A stretch of DNA of 64,000 bases, taken from positions 5,184,001-5,248,000 of the forward strand of contig OX638351.1 in NCBI GenBank assembly GCA_951813565.1, written 5' to 3'. The notes under the pieces are model-generated. The model ran no database searches, was not told the origin of the DNA, and was given only the letters and a program-made list of their open reading frames with translations. Positions 8,362-42,277 of the stretch are shown piece after piece. Both the position numbers and the translations under genes were made by a program. How positions within the stretch are numbered: position 1 is the stretch's first letter; the number at the start of each line of letters is the position of its first letter. This DNA comes from an uncultured Poribacteria bacterium. Lineage in GTDB: Bacteria; Poribacteria; WGA-4E; WGA-3G.

Positions 8362-8547
8362 TATAGTAGATTTTGGAATTACTTGGGCACTCAGCGCTAG
8401 CGAGGTTAGTAAACCTCCAAATCAACGGTATGAATGCGCGTATGGCATTCACCACCTACTGGTGAATGTAAGAGGCGCAATAAATTGCGCGACTACAAAC
8501 GTCGCAAATGCCAAGAAAATGTTAACTTATTTTTATAATTCACTATA
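8362..8547. mobile_element. MITE family A copy 1 (TATAGTA.ATT...TTCACTATA ends)
   Basis: Terminal inverted repeats shared with 38080-39618 and 59493-59606; internal GCGAGGTTAG.AAACCTC hairpin. Confidence 0.6.
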
Positions 8548-8638: not shown

Positions 8639-9233
8639 CAGAGTTATTAGTTTTAAGAATTATCAGTTACTGAGTGTTACTTAAAGTTTATATCGTCCGT
8701 CGGGTAGAGCTTGCGAAACCTATAAATCAACGGTCTGAATGCCTGTTGGCATTCCCCGGCATGTGCCTACTACTTTGCATCGCACATCTTTTTTCTAAGT
8801 TGAGACTATGGATAGAGTGATAGCGAAACCCACCTATGATACTATTATAACGTGAGTTTGATAAAAGAATTCAATTTTGAATGTTGTGTTTCGTTTACGT
8901 TCATCTTGGCACCAAAATCAGAACAAGTGCCTTTGTTCCGTGAATCAACGCCAAATGCGCGTTTGGCATTTGGCGGGTGCGGTATGTCCGCTGAAGCCAC
9001 ATAGCACTCCTACGGAGCGCAAGAACTTGAAAACCTAACTTCTATAAACATAGCACGCCGCTGGCGTGCTGCAACATATTCGGCATCAAATTTGGATAGC
9101 CATGATATCGTGTTGGATTCCTCTAAATCATTAAGTCAAACTTACGTTAATATTATTATCAAACTCACGTTATTATAAAGTATTAACGTTTGTGATGAAA
9201 TACGCCAGAAAAACCGAAAACTGAATAACCCTG
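8639..9233. mobile_element. ISAs1-derived MITE carrying nested elements
   Basis: Ends CAGAGTTATT... and ...CTGAATAACCCTG match the IRs of the ISAs1 at 61089-62138; the left ~80 bp recurs at 48202. Confidence 0.6.
8847..9171. mobile_element. Nested MITE with an 18-bp perfect TIR
   Basis: ATAACGTGAGTTTGATAA ... TTATCAAACTCACGTTAT. Confidence 0.6.
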
Positions 9234-12239: not shown

Positions 12240-12392
12240 GCAGCATGCCACACGGGGAATGCCATAAGGCATTCGGACCCGCTGAATGACTAAAGACGAA
12301 TGCGCTTGGTAGAATACGCTTTTGGTATTCTACATGATTCGCCATGATTCATACCGTTGATTTCTTGATTTGGCGCATGCTGCGTTGATTTG
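12240..12392 (-). repeat. Nested CAAATCA micro-insertion stack inside a REP hairpin
   Basis: A 34-nt outer unit split by a 119-nt composite (12254-12372) nearly identical to 28060-28178. Confidence 0.8.
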
Positions 12393-24063: not shown

Positions 24064-24975
24064 CTACAACAAACTTGATAGTTGCAACTGTTCACCTGCA
24101 TGGTAGGAACTTCGCACTAATGGACCCGACTCCACATGCCGAAAGCCCATCTCAATACCAGCCTCTTTGAGTTCATCAAATTCGTCTGGTGTATAGTAAC
24201 GTTGAATCGGTAGATGGCGTGGAGAAGGTGAGAGATATTGCCCAATAGTAAGAATATCACAACCCGTCCTTTGAATGTCTTGCATCGTTTCTAAAAGTTC
24301 AATTACTGTCTCTCCTAACCCCACCATTAGACCAGATTTTGTTAGCATTTCTGGATTCAGTTTTTTGCCGATTTTGAGAAGTGTGAGCGTTTGTTGGTAA
24401 TTTGCGTACGGACGCGCGCGGCGGTATAGACGTTGAACTGTTTCTGTATTGTGATTGAGCACCTCCGGACCCGCTTGCACGATTACTTTAAGCGCATCCC
24501 AATTGCCTTCAAGATCGGGAATAAGAACCTCTATAGTACAACCCGGGCGGTGCTTTCGTGCTGCTGTAATACAATCTGCAAATATACCCGCACCACCATC
24601 AGCTAAATCGTCCCGGTTAACGGAGGTAATGACAACGTGGTTTAGCTTCAAGTGTGCAACTGCTTCACCCAACCTTCGCGGTTCATCTGTATCTACGACA
24701 TTAGGATTGCCTTTCTTCACTGCACAGAACATGCACCTGCGTGTACAGATATCCCCTAATATCATAAAGGTAGCCGTGCGACTGTTCCAGCATTCCCCGA
24801 TATTAGGACACCGTGCTTCTTCGCAGACAGTGTGAAGATCAAGATCACGCATTAATTTTTTAAGTTCTGTGTAGTTCCCTCCGCCGGGAATACGTGCCTT
24901 AATCCATGATGGATGCCTACGTTGAAGGGGATCAGGGGAAAGTATCGGAAGGGTTTTAAACATACTATTTTCCAT
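24064..24975 (-). CDS. lipA: Lipoyl synthase
   Basis: CEEARCPNIGEC, CTRRCMFC, RSSY; start trimmed so it does not overlap the tRNA. Confidence 0.96.
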   Translation of the reverse strand: MENSMFKTLPILSPDPLQRRHPSWIKARIPGGGNYTELKKLMRDLDLHTVCEEARCPNIGECWNSRTATFMILGDICTRRCMFCAVKKGNPNVVDTDEPRRLGEAVAHLKLNHVVITSVNRDDLADGGAGIFADCITAARKHRPGCTIEVLIPDLEGNWDALKVIVQAGPEVLNHNTETVQRLYRRARPYANYQQTLTLLKIGKKLNPEMLTKSGLMVGLGETVIELLETMQDIQRTGCDILTIGQYLSPSPRHLPIQRYYTPDEFDELKEAGIEMGFRHVESGPLVRSSYHAGEQLQLSSLL

Positions 24976-25003
24976 AATCAGGGAGGCAAAATACTGTATA
25001 AAA

Positions 25004-25097
25004 TGGCGGGAGAGGGTGGGAGTCGAACCCACCTATCCACTTGCATGGACAAGCCGGTTTTGAAGACCGGTAGGGCCACCGGACCCTATCCTCCCCC
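25004..25097 (-). tRNA. selC: tRNA-Sec (anticodon UCA)
   Basis: 94 nt; 8-bp acceptor GGGGGAGG/CCTCTCCC, 6-bp D stem, loop CTTCAAA, long variable arm, GTTCGA, encoded GCCA; next to selB. Confidence 0.95.
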
Positions 25098-25202
25098 ATA
25101 AGTTAGAAGCATGTTTGATAGTTATGGTAAGCTAAAGAACAATATATTTTTATTTGGGTTGACAACGTTGGTAGTCGCCAAATGTCATACGCGCATTCAG
25201 CA

Positions 25203-27137
25203 CTAATTTTGTCTTGATGACAATCTGCGGACGTTACCATCTCGAATTGTGACATTTTGCGTGTCACAGTACTCCAAGAACGGCACTGCATATTTACGTG
25301 AAGTTTGCGCCAATTCCCGAAACTCCCCAACCGTTATTGTCCCATTTTCTCGGAGATAATTGGTTAATAATTCTTTTATTTCTTCAAACACCTCTCTGTG
25401 GATAAAGAAATTATCGGCTGCTTTGATAAATTGCCCAAGGTTTAATAAAGCGAAAAACGTTGATTCAATCACTTGGGGGGTATACTCTGGAAATAGCGTT
25501 TTCAGTTCATTAAGTCCAGGAGAATTGATTCCCACATCCAAAAATAATTTTTCAAGTGTTTCTTTAGCAGTTGACTCTTCTGCAGAGAATTGAATTTCAT
25601 GTGAAGCTAACCGTATTAGATTTCCATCCTTAACTAATTGCTTCGTTTTAATCAGTTCATTCGTAAGTTTTTCAAAACCTATCTCATCAAGTTCAAGTTC
25701 ACGGCTTAATTGCGATGCATTCTGCCCAGCGAGAAGCGGTTCTTTTTTGTGAAATTCTGACAACACTGTTAAAAGTTTCTCTGTAAATTCTGCAGTACGC
25801 GCAGCATCTGAAACAAGAGGCGTTTTACCCGATGTATCCCATCTTACAATTTTTTTTTCGGATGCCAAGGTTTCTAAAATGTTTCCGACTTCTGCTTGTG
25901 AATACGGCATATAATAATAGAGAAATGATTCGGCAACACATAGTGAAGGACTATTTTCTAAAACGGCATTTACAACTTGTGTGTCGTCCGCTTCTTCCCA
26001 CTGTGCTAAGGTTGTAATAGTTTCTTGTGTAAACCGCTTGTGCTTTGGTGCAAATGGGTTGATTACTTCACCACCACCAACAGTATGTTGTGCGGAAAAA
26101 TCTCGCAAAATGATGCGATCACCTCTAAATGTTAAAATCGGCTGCTCTAAGCGGAGTTGGACTTGGACTCTGTCCCCAGGTAGAATTGCTTCGTCAACTA
26201 ATAAAATCAATCGACAAAATATCTCACGCGTCCCAAGGTACGCACGAAAACGTCCCCAATGTTCAAGCATCCTTGGAAATGAGGATAAAACCTGCAACGA
26301 CACATCAATATTATCAGTAACACGTGAGAAGTTAATCGGACATAACACATCGCCACGTTGAATATCATGGACAGTAGTACCGGATAGGTTAAGCGCAGTT
26401 CTTTGTCCAGCTTGCGCAACATCAGCATGTTCGTTATGCACCTGTATACCTCGCACCCGTACCACATCATCTTGTGGTAGGATAACCATCCGCTGATCCC
26501 GATTTACTGAACCACCTATGAGCGTTCCTGTAACTACTACGCCAAAACCTTGAACAGTAAAAACACGGTCAACATACAACCGCGGAATGCCATCATGTTC
26601 TTGTGCTTTCGTTGCCAGATCAACCTGTTCAACGATCATCTGCTTTAAGGTGTCAATCCCTTCACCGGTTATAGATGAAACACTAACGGAAGGAATTCCC
26701 TCAAGCGATGTGCCAACTAACATTTCCTGTGTCATTTCTGTTGCTTCAGTTAGTTCTTCACGGGTTGCCAAATCTGACTTCGTCATCACAAGTATGCCAT
26801 TTGAGATTCCAAGCAGATCTAAAATTGCTAAGTGTTCAAGCGTCTGTTCCTGAACACCTTCCTTGGCATCAACAACAAAAAGCACAATATCCATCCCATA
26901 AGCACCGGACAGCATGTTCCGGATGAATTTCTCATGTCCAGGCACATCAACAATCCCTGCGCGTGAATTATCGGGAAGGTCAAAATAAGCAAAACCTAAC
27001 TCAATAGATAAGCCGCGCTCCCGTTCTTCTTTGAGTCGGTCTGTCTCAATGCCTGTGAGTGTGCCAACCAGGGCGGTTTTTCCGTGGTCCACATGCCCTG
27101 CTGTCCCGATGATAAGGTGTCGTCTATCTTGATGCAT
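25203..27137 (-). CDS. selB: Selenocysteine-specific elongation factor
   Basis: GTAGHVDHGKT, DVPGHEKF, C-terminal winged helix SRKYAVPFLEY.D. Confidence 0.96.
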   Translation of the reverse strand: MHQDRRHLIIGTAGHVDHGKTALVGTLTGIETDRLKEERERGLSIELGFAYFDLPDNSRAGIVDVPGHEKFIRNMLSGAYGMDIVLFVVDAKEGVQEQTLEHLAILDLLGISNGILVMTKSDLATREELTEATEMTQEMLVGTSLEGIPSVSVSSITGEGIDTLKQMIVEQVDLATKAQEHDGIPRLYVDRVFTVQGFGVVVTGTLIGGSVNRDQRMVILPQDDVVRVRGIQVHNEHADVAQAGQRTALNLSGTTVHDIQRGDVLCPINFSRVTDNIDVSLQVLSSFPRMLEHWGRFRAYLGTREIFCRLILLVDEAILPGDRVQVQLRLEQPILTFRGDRIILRDFSAQHTVGGGEVINPFAPKHKRFTQETITTLAQWEEADDTQVVNAVLENSPSLCVAESFLYYYMPYSQAEVGNILETLASEKKIVRWDTSGKTPLVSDAARTAEFTEKLLTVLSEFHKKEPLLAGQNASQLSRELELDEIGFEKLTNELIKTKQLVKDGNLIRLASHEIQFSAEESTAKETLEKLFLDVGINSPGLNELKTLFPEYTPQVIESTFFALLNLGQFIKAADNFFIHREVFEEIKELLTNYLRENGTITVGEFRELAQTSRKYAVPFLEYCDTQNVTIRDGNVRRLSSRQN

Positions 27138-27916
27138 CAGTTGAGTCCATGTTGTGAGTGGATTAGTTTTCCGATTCGATTGAACCGTATATTACCAATA
27201 AGTTTCCACACCTCCCATATCTTCGCGGGGCGATCCTTAAAGGACCAGTATACCATGAAGGCTTGTCCCTTAATATCATCAACATCAACAGGTCCCCACG
27301 TGCGGCTGTCACTACTCTGATCACGGTTATCTCCCATCGCAAAAACCTTGCCTTTTGGAACAGTAAACGGTTTGCCATCAGGAAATTCCCGTTTAAATTG
27401 GTTGTCTGTCAGGATAAAATCATCGTAAATTTCATTATCTTCCATGTATTTCTCTGGCTGGCGGAAAGGAGGGAAGTCACCACGTCTAATAAAACGACCC
27501 CCTACGTGCTTAGTGTAACTGCTTTCTTCAACAGCTTTACCGTTAACATATAGCGTTTTGCCCTCTGTGTGAACCGTATCGCCTTCAGCGGCTACAATAC
27601 GCTTAATGAAATTCCGATCAGTTTCGTGTGGTGGAATAAAAACAAAAACGTCTCCTCGGGCAGGCTTATGAAAATCGAAGACTCTCATATCTGTTCCAGG
27701 AATTTTAAACCCGTAAATAAACTTGCATACCAGAATCCGGTCTCCAATAAGAAGTGTATCTTCCATTGAACCGGATGGGATTTTAAATGCTTCCACAACA
27801 AAGGGACGTATAAACCCAAAAACAAGAATAAGTGCAACTACAATAACTTGGGTATATTCCCAGACGACCGTTTTCCGAAATTTCTGCCATTTTGATAATT
27901 GGATATCAGTACTCAT
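27137..27916 (-). CDS. lepB: Signal peptidase I (copy 1)
   Basis: IPSGSME, FIKRI, MGDNRD.S.DSR. Confidence 0.95.
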   Translation of the reverse strand: MSTDIQLSKWQKFRKTVVWEYTQVIVVALILVFGFIRPFVVEAFKIPSGSMEDTLLIGDRILVCKFIYGFKIPGTDMRVFDFHKPARGDVFVFIPPHETDRNFIKRIVAAEGDTVHTEGKTLYVNGKAVEESSYTKHVGGRFIRRGDFPPFRQPEKYMEDNEIYDDFILTDNQFKREFPDGKPFTVPKGKVFAMGDNRDQSSDSRTWGPVDVDDIKGQAFMVYWSFKDRPAKIWEVWKLIGNIRFNRIGKLIHSQHGLN

Positions 27917-28039
27917 GATGTTTGAACCGCCGTAATAAGACGGTATCCCTTTCTTACTTTTACGACTTGTGTTAGTTAACTATTTGTTTGTATTCTTTTC
28001 ACACATATTGAACTCATGTTATACACATATCGTCCCTAC

Positions 28040-28192
28040 CAAATCAACGCCAAATGCGCCAAATCAAGAAATCAACGGTATGAATCATGGCGAATCATGT
28101 AGAATACCAAAAGCGTATTCTACCAAGCGCATTCGTCTTTAGTCATTCACCGGGTATGAATGCCTTTTGGCATTCCCCGTATGGCATTTGTC
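28040..28192 (+). repeat. Nested CAAATCA micro-insertion stack
   Basis: 34-nt unit in CCCTAC^GGGAC split by a 119-nt composite; an unsplit sister unit lies at 28244-28277. Confidence 0.8.
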
Positions 28193-28397
28193 GGGACTAA
28201 AGATAGGGTGTTCAACGTTTTTCTATAAACATATCGTCCCTACCAAATCAACGTCAAATGCGCTTATGGCATTTGTCGGGACTGAAGAAGGAATCAACTA
28301 ATGATAAAAACTAACAAAACGTCATGCAATTGTGAGACAATATTTTACAAATAGTTATTTAGCACAACTCGTTACTTTTAGATGATTTTTCATTTTT

Positions 28398-29153
28398 TTA
28401 ACGGATGAGTTTGCCTATGCGATTCAAACGGATATTACCTACTATTTTCCATATCTCCCACATTTTTGCAGGTCGGTTGCGAGTTGACCACATAACCATA
28501 AAAGCTTGTCCTTTAATATCGTCTACATCCACAGGTCCCCATGTGCGGCTATCACTACTTTGGTCACGGTTGTCTCCCATAGCAAAGACCATGTTCTTTG
28601 GAATAGTAAACGGTTTACCTTCTGGAAATTTATGTCTGAACTGACTTTCTGTCAAGGTGAAATCGCTGTATGTTTCATCTTGAGAAAGATATTCAGAACT
28701 ACGGAACGGTGGAAAATCCTTCCGAAAATGACTATAAGGTAAGTGTTTCGTATAACTTTGTTCGTCAACCCGCTGACCATTAACATACAGTCTCTCGCCT
28801 TCAGTAAAGACTCTATCTCCTGCAACGGCAACAATACGTTTGATGAAATGGAGATTTCTCTCATGTGGTGGGATGAAAACAAAAACATCTCCACGGGCAG
28901 GTTCATGAAAATCAAAAACCTTGATATCTGTGCCTGGAATTTTAAACCCATACATAAACTTACAAACTAAAATCCGATCGCCTACGAGTAGTGTATCTTC
29001 CATAGAGCCAGATGGAATTAGATAGGCATCTACTATAAATGGACGAAAGAATCCAAAAACAAAAATAAGCGTAAATATAATGCCTTTTAATTGTTGAAAT
29101 CTGGACAATCTGGACTTGGTTGGCTGATTATGATTTTGTGTATTGCGATCCAT
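28398..29153 (-). CDS. lepB: Signal peptidase I (copy 2)
   Basis: Same catalytic boxes; close paralog of the adjacent copy. Confidence 0.93.
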   Translation of the reverse strand: MDRNTQNHNQPTKSRLSRFQQLKGIIFTLIFVFGFFRPFIVDAYLIPSGSMEDTLLVGDRILVCKFMYGFKIPGTDIKVFDFHEPARGDVFVFIPPHERNLHFIKRIVAVAGDRVFTEGERLYVNGQRVDEQSYTKHLPYSHFRKDFPPFRSSEYLSQDETYSDFTLTESQFRHKFPEGKPFTIPKNMVFAMGDNRDQSSDSRTWGPVDVDDIKGQAFMVMWSTRNRPAKMWEIWKIVGNIRLNRIGKLIR

Positions 29154-29221
29154 AATTGACATCCTTTGGAAAATCGTCCTACTTTAGGGTTATAGTAGTG
29201 TCAATTTCTATGAAATTTGTA

Positions 29222-31027
29222 TTATTCATCAGTTGCCAACATTGCTGTAAACGCTTCTTGCGGAACATCAACACTGCCAATCTGTTTGAGTCGTTTTTTG
29301 CCTTCTTTCTGCCTTTCCAACAATTTCCGTTTTCTGGTAATATCGCCACCGTAACATTTTGCAGTAACGTTTTTCCGAAGTGCTCTGACACTTTCACGGG
29401 CAACAATTTTGTTTCCTATCGCTGCCTGCACAGGAATTTCAAACATCTGCCGAGGAATTAACTCTCTCAATTTACTAACTAAACTTTTTCCACGCGTCTC
29501 CGCCATTTCGCGAGGCAAAATAGTTGAGAGCGCATCTACCGACTTCCCATTGAGTAAAACATCTAACTTTACAAGATCCTCTGTTTTGTATTCACCTATA
29601 TCGTATTCGAGTGAGGCATATCCGCGAGTAAGCGATTTGAGTTTTGGGAAAAAGTCCATCAACATCTCACTTAGCGGCAGTTCATAAAGTAGCTGCACCC
29701 GTGCAGCATCAAGTTGATTCATCCGTTTATATATACCCCGCCGCTTCTGACAAAGTTCCATCGCATTTCCGATATACTCTCGTGGAACAATTATATCTAT
29801 ATTGACATACGGTTCCTCAATTCGTTCGATATTCTGTATTTCAGGAAGATGGGCAGGATTGTCCACTAACACATGGTCACTCGATTTTAGAAATACCTTA
29901 TACATGACACTGGGTGCTGTCCGAACAAGTGAGAGTTCGAATTCACGCTCAAGTCGTTCATGGATAATTTCCATGTGAAGTAAACCTAAAAATCCACACC
30001 GAAATCCAAAACCGAGGGCGACAGAGGTTTCCGGTTCATAAGTGAAAGAAGCATCGTTGAGGCGAAGTTTATCAAGAGCCTCGCGTAGTGCATGAAATTG
30101 ATTGGTGTCTGCTGGATAAAGCCCACTAAATACAAGCGGTTTTATCTCTTGATATCCGGGAAGTGGTTGTGCGGTAGGCTGTAGATGATGTGTAATTGTA
30201 TCCCCAATTTTTGCGTGGTCTATTTCTCGAATCCCAGCAATGATATACCCAACTGCGCCCGTTTGGAGTTCAGTTGTTGGTTGCATCTGGGGCGTAAAAA
30301 TGCCGACTTCTTCTATCTCATAGGAACGTTTCGTCTGCATCAGTTGAATTTTCTCTCCCGGTGCCACACTCCCATCAAAAATGCGGGTATACATAATCAC
30401 ACCGCGATAGTTATTATAGACTGAATCAAGCACAAGTGCTTTTAGGGGAGCATTAGATTCGCCGGCAGGTGGTGGAATTCGTTTGACAACCGCCTCTAAT
30501 ATCGCTGGAATTCCGATACCGGCTTTAGCACTTACGAGGAGCGCATCATCGGCAGGGATGCCGACTACCTCTTCAATCTGTCGTTTGACTTCATCAGGTT
30601 GTGCAGCTGGCAGGTCAATTTTATTGATAACGGGGACAATCTCAAGTTCATTTTCAATTGCAAGGTATGCGTTTGCTAAGGTTTGTGCTTCAACACCTTG
30701 TGCTGCATCAACAATTAAAATTACCCCTTCGCATGCTGCGAGGCTTCGAGATACCTCATAAGTAAAATCAACATGTCCAGGAGTATCAATCAAATTGAGT
30801 TCATAGAGGTTTTCATCTTCAGCACGATATTTCAGTTTTACTGCAGTAGCCTTGATCGTGATCCCACGTTCCCGTTCCAAGTCCATTAAATCAAGCACCT
30901 GTTCCCGCATCTCTCTTTCAGCAAGCGTGTTCGTCCGCTCTAAGAGTCGGTCACTCAGTGTGCTTTTTCCGTGGTCAATATGTCCTAAAATACAGAAGTT
31001 GCGTATGTTTTGAAGTTCGGTTGACAT
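29222..31027 (-). CDS. lepA: Elongation factor 4
   Basis: [39 protein letters not shown]. Confidence 0.97.
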
Positions 31028-31035
31028 GATATAAT

Positions 31036-31065
31036 AGTATACCACAATTTAGGTCAATTTATCAA
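31036..31065 (-). promoter_or_regulatory. Extended -10 sigma70 promoter of lepA, near-leaderless
   Basis: TTGATA-18bp-TATACT with TGn; ATG 8 nt downstream. Confidence 0.55.
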
Positions 31066-33182: not shown

Positions 33183-34304
33183 TCACATCTGCTCCACAAG
33201 GGGTTCTAAGCAGCCCCGAAGTATATTGATAGCAGCGTTTATATCTCTATCGTGGTGTGAACCACATTCATTGCATATCCACTGCCTATCTGCAAGAGAA
33301 AGATTATTGTTAGAATGTCCGCAGTTGCTACAAGGTTTTGTTGTAGGTGACCACTGTCCGACTTGATGGCATGCACGATTATGTTTGAAACATTTGAACT
33401 TCACAATCTGAACAAACTGATAGAAACCGAGGTCGGAGACTTTACGTCCCCAGAGTCTTTTCATTCCGTCAAGGTTGAGCGTTTCGGTGACGATAATGTC
33501 AAAGCGTCTGCAAAGGTCTGTAGCAAGTTTCCAGTGCCAATCTCTGCGTTGGTTGCTAACTTTGATATAGAGCCGTGTGAGTTGTCTGATAGCACGATAC
33601 CAGTTGTTAGACCCCTTGACTTTGCGACTAAGGGACTTATTCAGTTTGCGAAGTTGTTTCAAAGATTGTTTATGGAACTGCGGAGACTCTATTTTTTCAC
33701 CAGTGCTGATTGTCAGAAAAGTTTTCAAACCGAAGTCTACGCCCACGCTCTCACCTGTTTGTTGCATAGGTTCGGTAGAAGTATTATCGGTGATGATATA
33801 GAGCCAGTATTCACCAGCATTATCACGAAGGATTTGGATATATCGGACATCTCCGTGCCAGTTGCGGTGTTGATGGAAAGAGAACCAAACACGATTGACT
33901 TTCAAAGATTTAGAATGCATGTCCCACGATTTGAAAGAGAGACGCACACGCCCATCTTCAAGTTTGTAGCCTGTTTGGAACTTAGCAGAACGGTATCTAT
34001 GTTTTCGCTTCGGTTTCGGATGACCGCCTTGACCAGCAAAGAAACGTTGGTATGCGTCATGGATACGGATAATCGCAGCGTCAAGGGTGTCACGAGGTAT
34101 CCAAGCCCAATGTTTATGGGTGCGTTTCAGCAACTTGGTAAGATGCGGTTGCAACTTGTATCTACCAGCATATTTGCCGTAGATGCGGTAATATCGCTTT
34201 TCAAGACGCAGAAAGTGATTATGCACATCACACAAGTCATCAAGCATGTTGCCCAAACGTTTGTTCTTTGGGTGATTGCGTCCCTTATATTTATAGGTTC
34301 GCAT
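33183..34304 (-). CDS. tnpB: RNA-guided endonuclease TnpB
   Basis: RuvC GVDFG / TETL / DRDINAA; zinc finger CSNC..CNEC. Confidence 0.95.
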   Translation of the reverse strand: MRTYKYKGRNHPKNKRLGNMLDDLCDVHNHFLRLEKRYYRIYGKYAGRYKLQPHLTKLLKRTHKHWAWIPRDTLDAAIIRIHDAYQRFFAGQGGHPKPKRKHRYRSAKFQTGYKLEDGRVRLSFKSWDMHSKSLKVNRVWFSFHQHRNWHGDVRYIQILRDNAGEYWLYIITDNTSTEPMQQTGESVGVDFGLKTFLTISTGEKIESPQFHKQSLKQLRKLNKSLSRKVKGSNNWYRAIRQLTRLYIKVSNQRRDWHWKLATDLCRRFDIIVTETLNLDGMKRLWGRKVSDLGFYQFVQIVKFKCFKHNRACHQVGQWSPTTKPCSNCGHSNNNLSLADRQWICNECGSHHDRDINAAINILRGCLEPLVEQM

Positions 34305-38232: not shown

Positions 38233-39390
38233 TCAGAGACTGCCTGCCGAGGCAGGTGTTACGTCTCCTCCTGAAAAGGTTGACGCCCCAACCTTATGAA
38301 TGTTTATAGCAGCGTTTATATCGCGGTCATGAGAGATTTTACAATTATGGCAATACCAATCGCGCACACTCAAATTAAAGAACATTTGGATTTGTCCGCA
38401 GGAATGGCAAACTTTACTTGTGGGTGTCCATCTGTCAATCTGCTTGACATGCTTGCATCGTTTTTGTGCTTGCCATTCGAATTTCTGCATGAAGTCTGCA
38501 AAGCCGTAGTCAGAGACTTTTCGTCCCCAGAGGCGTTTCATGCCGTCAAGGTTCAAGTCTTCAAAGAAACAGACATCAAACTTTCTGACAAGTTCAAGCG
38601 CGAGTTTCCAATGATGGTCTTCACGTTGCCGATTGATTTTCCTGTGTACCCGTGCAAGGTCTTTCCTCGCACACTCGCGATTGTTGCTGCCTTTCTGCTT
38701 CCGAGACAACGCACGGCTCGCACGTTTTATCAGTTTAGCAGCAGATTTATAGCATTCAGGAGATTGATATTTCGTGCCATCGGAACAGGTGAGGAAGTGC
38801 TTGAGTCCAAAGTCAAACCCTGCTGTCCTACCAGTCTTAGGTGCAGGCTCAAGTCCCTCAGTGTCTGTTGTGATAGTGATATACCAATCCCCTACAAAGT
38901 CTTTCTTAACGGTAACCTGTTTGATGTTGCCTTCAATAGGTCGGCTATACCAGAATCGGTACCAGCGTCTATTGATACGGATTTTCGCAACGGGGCAGCC
39001 ATCTATTTTGTCAATAGTTTCTATCTTAACTTGGCTACCATCAAAAGTCATAGATTTGTATTTATACCGACTTCTAAATTTAGGCGGACGCTTGGCTCTA
39101 CCTTCAAAGAAGTTTTGCCAACCTCTGTCAACACGTTGGATACATTCCTGCAAACACCAAGAATACGGAACAGTCCAGTGTTGATATTTAGCAAGTCGTT
39201 TCAGTTTCGTCAGATGTTTAATCATTCTGTAGCAGCTTGGACGCTTATAGTCTTCGCAATGTCCGTAGATGCGATAGTGACGCTGCCACAACGCAATAAA
39301 ATGGTTGTGGACATGCGCAATGATACGCAGGTCTTTTTGCAGATGACGATTGCGTTTATGTTTTTGTCCCTTGTATTTGTAGGTTCGCAT
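38233..39390 (-). CDS. tnpB: RNA-guided endonuclease TnpB
   Basis: GFDFG / FEDL / DRDINAA; CHSC..CHNC. Confidence 0.95.
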   Translation of the reverse strand: MRTYKYKGQKHKRNRHLQKDLRIIAHVHNHFIALWQRHYRIYGHCEDYKRPSCYRMIKHLTKLKRLAKYQHWTVPYSWCLQECIQRVDRGWQNFFEGRAKRPPKFRSRYKYKSMTFDGSQVKIETIDKIDGCPVAKIRINRRWYRFWYSRPIEGNIKQVTVKKDFVGDWYITITTDTEGLEPAPKTGRTAGFDFGLKHFLTCSDGTKYQSPECYKSAAKLIKRASRALSRKQKGSNNRECARKDLARVHRKINRQREDHHWKLALELVRKFDVCFFEDLNLDGMKRLWGRKVSDYGFADFMQKFEWQAQKRCKHVKQIDRWTPTSKVCHSCGQIQMFFNLSVRDWYCHNCKISHDRDINAAINIHKVGASTFSGGDVTPASAGSL

Positions 39391-40304: not shown

Positions 40305-40816
40305 TCAGGATTCCTATGAAATAGGGGTTATGATCGTAATACATATCATAATATAGAATTTTCTTGATACTTGCAAGCGTTATTCATGGGTGTACAGGGT
40401 TATACCGAATTAACTTGATCCTACTCGGTAGAAGCCAAATCATGGAGAATGTCAAACGCGCATTCTCCATGATTTGGCAATGAATAGCGGACTACAACAC
40501 GTTTCTTGTTATTGATAGGAAATCATTCAGAAATGGTGTTAGAGCCTTTATAGAATGAGGTGTTTGGCATAGTAGCATAACGAAAGGATTCAACGACTTC
40601 TATTAGGTTTTAACGTCTGTGAAGAGGTTAAGTTATACCAATTCTATGAATTATTTTCTCTTTTGAAATGAGATGTAAGAGGCGCAATGAATTGCGCGAC
40701 TACGAACAGGCTATTTTTTTTGAGATGTTATTTTTTAGAAACCGAAAAGTCGCGACCAGGAGGTCGCTCCTACAGGGAAGAGAAGAGCGTTAAGAATATG
40801 GGCTTACAAAGCCTTT

Positions 40817-42277
40817 TTACATTCTTTGCCGAAGTTTAAGGATTTTGAGCCACTTTTGCGCTTTAGGTATACTTATGTCAAGCGGTTCTTTCATCTCATA
40901 ACATTCGGTTTGCCCAGCATAGATGTGATGCCAATCAACAATGCACGGCATTTTCTGTTTTTTAAGGTTTCGCATGAGGTATCCGCGAACTCTTGCACGC
41001 GTATTGCAAGGTGCGTTACTGATAGCATCGCTAATTTGCTGGTCTGTGATAACCTGTCTCATACACCCTTCGCTTTGAAGTGCGTAAAAGATACTATTCT
41101 CAGGGTCAATATTGTGGTATTCTAAATCCAAACTTTTGAGCCATGGATCATCCCACGTCAACTCCTCTTCGTCTACTAAAGCATCAAGAAACCATTTCTT
41201 TGCTGCCCAATCAAGCCGCGTTGTAAGTCGTGTCCAATCCGTTTCAAGATCGTTGAGCACAGTTTCCCATTCGGTAAGAATCCACTTAGCAGTTTCGTCA
41301 AGTTCCGTTAATACGTTTTGGACAAAGTTGAGATATACGCGTTGAATGTCAATAGCAGAAACAGTGCTGCCGTTCTGCAAATCGACCTCCCATTTGAGAG
41401 AAGTATCCCGTGAGATGTGTCTGATAGCAGCAATAGGGTCAGCAAGATCGAGATTCGGTATCGGAAGTTTTTCTCCATGAATTTCATAATGCCGCTCAAT
41501 TGCATCAAGGATAAGTGCTGTTGTCCCAACTTTAAGGGCAGTCGCATATTCCGACATATTAGAGTCTCCTACAAGAAGATGGAGTCTGCGGTATTTTGTA
41601 TAATCACTAAGAGGCTCGTCACGAGTATTGATTATCGCTCGGCTAAACTGAATCCATTCATAGATTTCAGTGACGATGTGATCCGCCCGTTGGGAAATTT
41701 GGTATCCGAGAAAATCGTCAACGCTATATTGCCCATCTCCAAATTCAAGGATGTCATCGTATCCACCGACTCTGCCAGCACCAGCGTATATTTGGCGAGT
41801 CACAAAGAATGGGAGTAGTGTTGGGATGACGATCCTATAAAACGGAACATCACGGCGCGCCTGAAAGTTTTCGTGGCATCCGAAAGTTGCTCCTGTGAAA
41901 TGGTCTATGTTGTTTTTATAAAAGGCTACGTGTGCGGAAAGACCGGTATCCCGCAAAATTGCTGTGATGATGTGTTCAATGGCTTTATCGTAAGCGATGA
42001 GGTCAAACAGGTTTGCACATTCCGGCGTAGCATATTCAAGATGTCCCATATCAATGTAGAGCCTGCCGCCGTTGAAGAGGAAACCGCCATTGCCGGGTGG
42101 TTCACCCCAATCGCGATAGTGGAGATCGGGGATACCGAGTTCAAGTGTTTTAAAAACATAGTCTCTGACGCGCGCAGCAATACCTTCAGGTGATATTTTG
42201 ATACGTTGTGTCTGTATCGCCTGCGACTGTATCATGCACCCAAATTCGGTTTCGATACCCATTATTCTGTGTGTCAC
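40817..42277 (-). CDS. pafA: Pup/UBact-protein ligase
   Basis: GIETEFG, NGGRLYID.GH.EYATPEC, GCHENF, IINTRDEP, RRLH...GDSN, DLEYH. Confidence 0.88.
   Translation of the reverse strand: MTHRIMGIETEFGCMIQSQAIQTQRIKISPEGIAARVRDYVFKTLELGIPDLHYRDWGEPPGNGGFLFNGGRLYIDMGHLEYATPECANLFDLIAYDKAIEHIITAILRDTGLSAHVAFYKNNIDHFTGATFGCHENFQARRDVPFYRIVIPTLLPFFVTRQIYAGAGRVGGYDDILEFGDGQYSVDDFLGYQISQRADHIVTEIYEWIQFSRAIINTRDEPLSDYTKYRRLHLLVGDSNMSEYATALKVGTTALILDAIERHYEIHGEKLPIPNLDLADPIAAIRHISRDTSLKWEVDLQNGSTVSAIDIQRVYLNFVQNVLTELDETAKWILTEWETVLNDLETDWTRLTTRLDWAAKKWFLDALVDEEELTWDDPWLKSLDLEYHNIDPENSIFYALQSEGCMRQVITDQQISDAISNAPCNTRARVRGYLMRNLKKQKMPCIVDWHHIYAGQTECYEMKEPLDISIPKAQKWLKILKLRQRM

Follow-up and report, generated by a model that had tools for sequence, protein, structure and literature searches.

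A five-deep stack of 28-36-nt leader-plus-hairpin units inside a MITE-like element of a Poribacteria genome: probable inward assembly and ready-made spread

How do five short hairpin units come to lie one inside another within 153 nt between two signal peptidase genes, and does the depth of such a stack record what happened at that place? The stack lies in a stretch of 64,000 nt, here called the window (contig C1, positions 5184001-5248000), from the genome of an uncultured Poribacteria bacterium that lives as a sponge symbiont (labelled G000; other G numbers denote relative genomes and L numbers relatives' loci). An earlier note on this DNA had described two tandem CATATCGTCCCTAC^GGGACT hairpins (28026-28039/28193-28198 and 28230-28243/28278-28283), each holding a 34-nt unit, with a 119-nt block (28060-28178) interrupting the first unit at TGCGC^GTATGG and the second (28244-28277) left unsplit; all of these coordinates proved exact. 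Its tentative parse of the block into further units was likewise correct, the pieces being the units that we call P, M, B1 and B2, and the five levels that it had thought possible were recovered by recursive unit removal, which yielded depth 5 at 28040-28192. The features are as follows.

27137-27916, minus strand: signal peptidase I gene, the downstream lepB paralogue (TIGR02227, 155 bits, cut-off 47)
27955-27961, unstranded: left copy of the 7-nt target site duplication of the MITE (from orthologous 82-90 nt spacers without the element)
27962-28372, unstranded: MITE-like carrier, 411 nt, with imperfect terminal inverted repeats (18 complete genome copies)
28026-28198, plus strand: first host hairpin repeat, with GTAG on the minus strand; interrupted at C^G after 28039 and resuming at 28193
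28040-28192, plus strand: level 1, unit A, 34 nt (28040-28059 and 28179-28192), a clean insertion with a GC^G-type loop
28060-28178, plus strand: level 2, unit P, 35 nt (leader 28060-28067 and bulged hairpin 28153-28178), a clean insertion into the loop of A
28068-28152, plus strand: level 3, unit M, 36 nt (28068-28085 and 28138-28151, plus G 28152), between the leader and the hairpin of P
28086-28137, plus strand: level 4, unit B1, CAT and a 25-nt hairpin (28086-28095 and 28124-28137), grafted after AAT of the left arm of M, net +24
28096-28123, plus strand: level 5, unit B2, CAT and a 25-nt hairpin, grafted after AAT of the left arm of B1, net +24
28230-28283, plus strand: second host hairpin repeat, interrupted at C^G after 28243
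28244-28277, plus strand: unsplit unit A with a GC^T loop, not a P target (from loop-base counts)
28373-28379, unstranded: right copy of the 7-nt target site duplication (from the duplication analysis)
28398-29162, minus strand: signal peptidase I gene, the upstream lepB paralogue, after lepA (TIGR02227, 145 bits)
12240-12392, minus strand: second five-deep stack in the window, with the same topology but another host repeat (from the recursive parser)

The spacer between the two lepB genes, stack included, measures 484 nt in this genome. Among 29 relatives' loci, 12 contain the end of the upstream lepB and form the comparable set; the units were absent from all 12 of these spacers, ten of which are 82-90 nt long and two of which, at 231 and 241 nt, hold other repeats. 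The 411-nt carrier has the properties of a MITE, namely terminal inverted repeats, a target duplication (exact over 7 nt at 15 of the 18 complete copies), the absence of genes, dispersed copies and an empty orthologous site. Its target duplications are AT-rich, and its copies fall into three or more subfamilies whose left ends are about 78-80% alike. A left flank common to three copies suggests a preferred site within another repeat. No long element sharing its ends, which could be an autonomous partner, was found among 35 terminal motif matches.

The minus-strand gene run around the stack (window positions 24064-31045) comprises lepA, the two lepB paralogues, selB, tRNA-Sec (25008-25097) and lipA, and many relatives carry a single lepB at the place of the two paralogues. 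The LepA encoded here shares up to 95% identity with Candidatus Poribacteria genomes. The tRNA-Sec was the sole Rfam match in the window, and a scan for promoters and terminators returned chance levels only. Farther along, at 40817-42277, lies a gene of the Pup ligase/deamidase family that scores under the cut-offs of both the PafA and the Dop models. The segment 28026-28200 folds stably (z -3.4 and -3.9), a result that is expected of stacked hairpins and is no evidence of function. A plasmid search for the units gave no match; viral contigs gave single matches only, three with arm pairing (among 80 of the 120 loci listed), which we read as chance.

The interval 28040-28192 is an exact nest, A>P>M>B1>B2, whose parts of 34, 35, 36, 24 and 24 nt add up to 153 nt. 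Simple units measure 33-36 nt including the leader, the CAT-leader graft adds 28 nt, and the leaders end in AATCAAC or AATCAT, followed by the G of the stem. Empty copies of the first host hairpin repeat number 19 genome-wide. The joints are of three types. Only the outer two rungs, A in the host hairpin and P in the loop of A, are clean; at the third, one C of P has been exchanged for the unit plus G, and the two innermost units are replacements rather than clean insertions, in which AAT is common to the unit and the host's left arm and 4-5 host bases are lost (net +24). Furthermore, several A-type insertions at GTAG tags also swap one base, so that clean joining at C^G is the most frequent outcome rather than a rule. 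The two ends of a unit behave differently. The hairpin-end joint is nearly fixed, with G following the A-type hairpin in 145 of 157 distinct contexts, and outside tandem and inverted pairs the base after these hairpins was G in 387 of 402 copies and T in none. At the leader end, the first bases vary with the left flank.

Why, then, was one unit A split and its neighbour left whole? The base that follows GC in the loop was G in 83 split units and another base in none (14 were unclassified), whereas unsplit units had G in 194 cases and another base in 169, a difference whose p-value is overstated since the split loops come from 25 distinct left contexts. P enters only GC^G loops. The unit at 28244-28277 is unsplit because its loop base is T and not G, and none of its ten counterparts in two-hairpin MITE copies is split. 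The proposal that each inserted hairpin makes a new target held in a stricter form, as loop, leader-junction and AAT-arm rules define the next unit type for each host. The five-rung ladder at one homologous site and a loop rule that predicts which units are split are what this locus adds.

To see intermediates, we removed units recursively across the genome, as the earlier note had proposed. This gave 980 units in 656 trees, against 0 units in a reversed-genome control; depths 1 to 5 were represented by 494, 86, 22, 28 and 26 trees (162 trees of depth 2 or more), 5 being the maximum depth reached by this parser. A simple unit pattern matched 554 times in the genome and 0 times in the backwards control, and 549 of the 554 matches lie outside open reading frames of at least 200 aa, which span 74% of the genome. 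Intermediates do occur: every state from 0 to 153 nt exists among the MITE copies, the first repeat of the 14 two-repeat copies holding 0 nt (one copy), 34 (two), 69 (four), 105 (one), 129 (three) or 153 nt (three). The same ladder appears in the units themselves. Of the 209 P hairpins, 115 are un-hit and the others are filled: 29 with M only (the inner 36/37-nt form), 17 with M and B1, 34 with M, B1 and B2, 11 with a 95/96-nt form whose B1 carries a reverse P, and three with other cargo. Of 95 B1 units, 40 contain B2, 21 a reverse P and seven something else, and 27 are empty. M with the GA leader follows the P leader in 121 of 122 cases in this genome. Two copies, with inner parts of 153 and 177 nt, carry a different 92-nt inverted-repeat element with a REP inside the loop of M.

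The inner segments exist as free units only in part. P (8723-8757) and an M-like unit (8418-8453) stand alone, as had been suggested, but B1 and B2 never do, and the third locus offered for comparison, 40436-40476, turned out to hold a double-headed form of the CAT-leader unit, seated in host arms, instead of the inner unit in a free state. Of 93 simple B copies, 87 lie inside another unit's hairpin, 5-6 nt before the host's right arm; four represent two double-headed loci counted on both strands, two have broken contexts, and none is a free unit at a C^G site. The double-headed form (40436-40476; G000 near 1541563; L133, L135 and L148) makes a near-perfect palindrome in the host stem and may have arisen from the single-headed form by palindrome correction.

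Does the stack grow inward? Unscarred parents of the inner rungs are common (119 intact P heads, 15 un-hit M and 26 un-hit B1) while the inner rungs are scarred, which favours insertion over loss and hence inward growth. The variant of the outer P points the same way. Un-hit and filled P occur together in 16 host clusters; of the 65 filled copies there, 41 had the variant that is usual for their host (17.5 on average in permutations) and 52 had the loop of that variant (24.4 on average); 0 of 20000 permutations reached either value, although these and the Fisher p-values overstate the case, as host clusters are related copies and their thresholds arbitrary, so that the test shows a direction and not a number of events. 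The outer P follows the host and not the cargo; consequently, P was resident first and the inner cassette came later. The 85-nt cassette, M with B1 and B2, occurs in 34 copies over 15 host clusters, and one copy has B1(B2) on a different M variant, which needs a cassette transfer. Movement of the whole 119-nt block (65 near-full matches of 199) was considered as the main route and set aside, since the outer P variant follows the host instead. The view that stacks grow from the inside is thus favoured, and since new units enter old ones, the nesting order is, with good support, the assembly order of the composite lineage. Entry of inner cassettes into resident outer units, for which this locus offers sequence evidence, would be a further addition.

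Taken together, we favour, with a probability of roughly 0.6, a composite of gene-less leader-plus-hairpin units that was assembled inward, spread ready-made and was built by single-strand nick-and-paste, perhaps catalysed by a Y1/HUH enzyme. Elements of 28-36 nt would paste into hairpin DNA without target duplication, and each settled unit would offer a defined site to another type: the GC^G loop would receive P cleanly, the junction of P's leader and hairpin would receive M with a one-base swap, and a left arm ending in AAT would receive a CAT-leader unit that shares those bases, with 4-5 host bases removed. The inner cassette (M with B1 and B2) would then move into P units already settled in other host repeats, and hosts, this MITE included, would be copied whole with the stack inside; we infer that composites spread by both routes. 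A structure-guided nick in single-stranded DNA would be followed by joining that is exact where the hairpin ends and, with the help of microhomology, less strict on the leader side; the catalyst, acting in trans, may be a RAYT-like Y1/HUH enzyme.

Could a RAYT-like enzyme be the catalyst? We propose this only tentatively. RAYT-type enzymes are described as nicking single-stranded hairpin DNA at a dinucleotide set by the four bases 5' of the stem, and the 3'-OH left behind as able to prime or join (PMC8266576, PMC3333891). RAYT-type genes are present in this genome, whose Y1 proteins include those encoded near 242059, 5070821 and 3098010 and the IS605 TnpA. A leader ending in AACG, as in A-type units, would by the guide rule direct joining to C^G, the joint seen most often. 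For the B-type leader, on the other hand, the rule predicts A or T next, and C was seen in 15 of 22 distinct contexts. The rule fits the right joint of A-type units only and leaves the leader-side joint unexplained. RAYT profiles match 135 of 151 genomes, including all 26 of a family in which the unit pattern matches 1 of 26, and they gave no match in four unit-rich genomes (G030, G021, G017 and G119). Within 1.5 kb of each of ten Y1 genes there were 0-1 pattern matches, located in host REPs. A recurrent neighbouring transposase or Y1 gene was absent at 30 loci of 18 low-copy genomes, with one weak match, and no autonomous copy of the units was found. TnpB-domain matches number 51 in the genome, and many of them belong to near-identical IS605-type elements, among which TnpA copies are few; two such IS605-type/TnpB elements lie in the window (33183-34304 and 38233-39390). 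Among the matches listed (17 of the 51), the ends of these elements bear no resemblance to the unit.

A rather unlikely variant of this account dispenses with the RAYT kinship: the units would be family-wide Poribacteria elements of 28-36 nt, moved in trans by a single-strand paste-in enzyme of unrecognised kind and forming a self-extending nesting grammar. Such an enzyme would recognise a short leader beside a hairpin, make no target duplication, graft by a 3-base match and carry nested cargo of at least 85 nt along. The basic unit was found in 92 of 99 genomes of the family, compared with 1 of 51 outside it. Within the genus, 39 of 40 genomes have B units and 15 of 40 have B in B, with many pairings of outer and inner hairpins; relatives also show other orders of unit types (L159, L291) and M entering a host REP after AA. 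The left half of the exact stack occurs in 4 of 40 genomes, 37 times in this one and 1-3 times elsewhere. A 17-nt pattern of the P/M junction matched 36 of 40 genus genomes, a figure that overcounts, as several of 11 relatives' loci proved to be a doubled leader with one hairpin, or chance.

Could the inner rungs have formed without a dedicated enzyme? On this explanation, which we regard as improbable, rare founders arose by template switching or slippage between similar hairpins, each composite a single time, and were spread by gene conversion or ectopic recombination between nearly identical repeats that number in the hundreds. The B joints do share 3-5 nt, the double-headed forms resemble palindrome correction, and leaders stutter in relatives, with tandem 9-nt or 8-nt repeats in up to four copies before one hairpin (L117, L118; also G000 697956). 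Moreover, 17 of 209 P copies (about 8%) have left and right flanks of different host classes, so that ordinary recombination among repeats also shuffles the stacks and contributes to their spread; these chimeric copies are consistent with rearrangement or conversion via the 35-nt homology. However, across the genus (39 of 40 genomes) many different inner and outer hairpins show this +24 geometry; the resident P variant is intact as far as the M joint, so that a crossover would have only a few bases to work with; and A-type ends are fixed in about 157 distinct contexts.

The stack had been read as a record of insertion order at its place, which would mean that the locus was struck five separate times in situ and that depth is a local clock. 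It is true that all rungs occur within the one MITE family, that the 129- and 153-nt copies of one MITE subfamily share a loop variant of A and that the outer P follows its host. But depth 5 is reached by 26 trees where geometric decay from depths 1-2 would give 0.45, an excess of about 58-fold, and 24 of the 26 share one topology. B2 is identical in 39 of 40 copies though B hairpins vary elsewhere, and the MITE copy at G000 700665 differs from the one at 27962-28372 at 8 of 409 sites, none of them in the block. The single B1(B2) on another M variant again requires cassette transfer. These results indicate that the deep stacks are copies, so that the claim of a local record did not survive and five strikes in place appear quite improbable. 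Most or all of the stack most likely reached this locus in one MITE insertion, and this copy most likely records the evolution of the composite rather than events at its locus.

RNA-mediated copying, in which a reverse transcriptase primes on the nicked hairpin and copies a short unit RNA, is highly doubtful. Target-primed reverse transcription leaves asymmetric junctions, and the precise hairpin-end and variable leader-end joints resemble them. This genome has two reverse transcriptase genes, one lying between a cas1-like open reading frame and a CRISPR array of about 54 repeats (G000 3988991-3996420). Yet the domain PF00078 occurs in only 18 of 40 genus genomes and was not found in G035, G064, G039 or G028, which have 324-514 pattern matches each and of which G039 is a single contig; we therefore rejected a retro-element dependent on such an enzyme. 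Further CRISPR arrays lie at 1198127 and 2830673. Identity with CRISPR arrays was also rejected, the repeats of the three arrays found being unrelated to the units. The same holds for a derivative of IS110/IS1111 elements, which target REPs: the IS110 transposase domain (PF02371) has 0 matches in this genome, which is 95% complete.

Finally, an artefact of assembly or sequencing can be dismissed: dense short hairpin repeats can confuse assemblers and short-read contigs break across the stack, but the units occur in 92 of 99 independently assembled family genomes, four sequencing runs, belonging to four studies, yielded contigs with sub-pieces of the block at high depth, and 549 of 554 pattern matches avoid the long open reading frames. 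In Logan contigs from these runs (4 of the 24 listed), the flanks 27300-27991 and 28345-28893 match without differences; none of the contigs spans the stack, the internal joints coming from other copies, and one contig has an 88-nt skip (26 letters on the short side) whose location is ambiguous.

How repeats shorter than 40 nt move in bacterial genomes has been called an open question, stated for REPs (PMC8266576). The locus offers a natural ladder of intermediates and three joint types with exact target rules, which could serve as substrates for a biochemical test, and its evidence argues against a required reverse transcriptase or IS110 enzyme. It also carries a warning, as nesting depth in such repeats reflects copied composites and not counts of local events. 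If nested cargo is indeed carried by an enzyme that makes no target duplication, such a system of insertion would be very compact; and if the paste-in reading were true, each insertion would specify the next and the nests would be a readable phylogeny of the elements.

How do the units compare with known systems? Like REP, BIME and REPIN sequences, they lie between genes, reach hundreds of copies and consist of a hairpin whose stem is preceded on the 5' side by a conserved leader (PMC3116915, PMC3333891, PMC8266576), and they likewise cluster by insertion into or beside existing repeats, the host repeats here carrying GTAG. Unlike REPs and REPINs, however, the units have no GTAG and are oriented singlets rather than inverted doublets, and unlike the REPIN-RAYT pairing they join mainly at C^G and not C^T (or C^A) and flank no transposase gene of their own. 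They are not REP or REPIN members by tag, joint or gene linkage, though their hosts are GTAG repeats. With IS200/IS605 ends and their non-autonomous derivatives they share a hairpin with a short leader, the lack of target duplication and a single-strand logic; the difference is that a unit here is one hairpin and not two ends. In nested transposon clusters and MITE-in-MITE arrangements, the inner element post-dates the outer one within a lineage and the outer element copies the whole nest. Here, by contrast, five levels fit in 153 nt and the inner units have neither terminal inverted repeats nor target duplication. A published description of these units was not found in the open-licence literature.

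In behaviour, the units appear most like the SDR repeats of Nostocaceae. The repeats SDR1-8 are reportedly 21-27 nt long, nest in their own copies and are said to have no known enzyme. Both are tiny, gene-less dispersed units inside other repeats, here also inside themselves. The units differ in length, 28-36 nt as against the reported 21-27 nt, and in architecture: the leader in front of the hairpin is fixed, joints are of three types, and the ladder has five rungs with defined targets. The SDR work (Elhai et al. 2008, Genome Res 18:1484) is cited in PMC3116915, and in the account of PMC5861425 SDR5 inserts into HIP1 and SDR repeats have been reported only in Nostocaceae.
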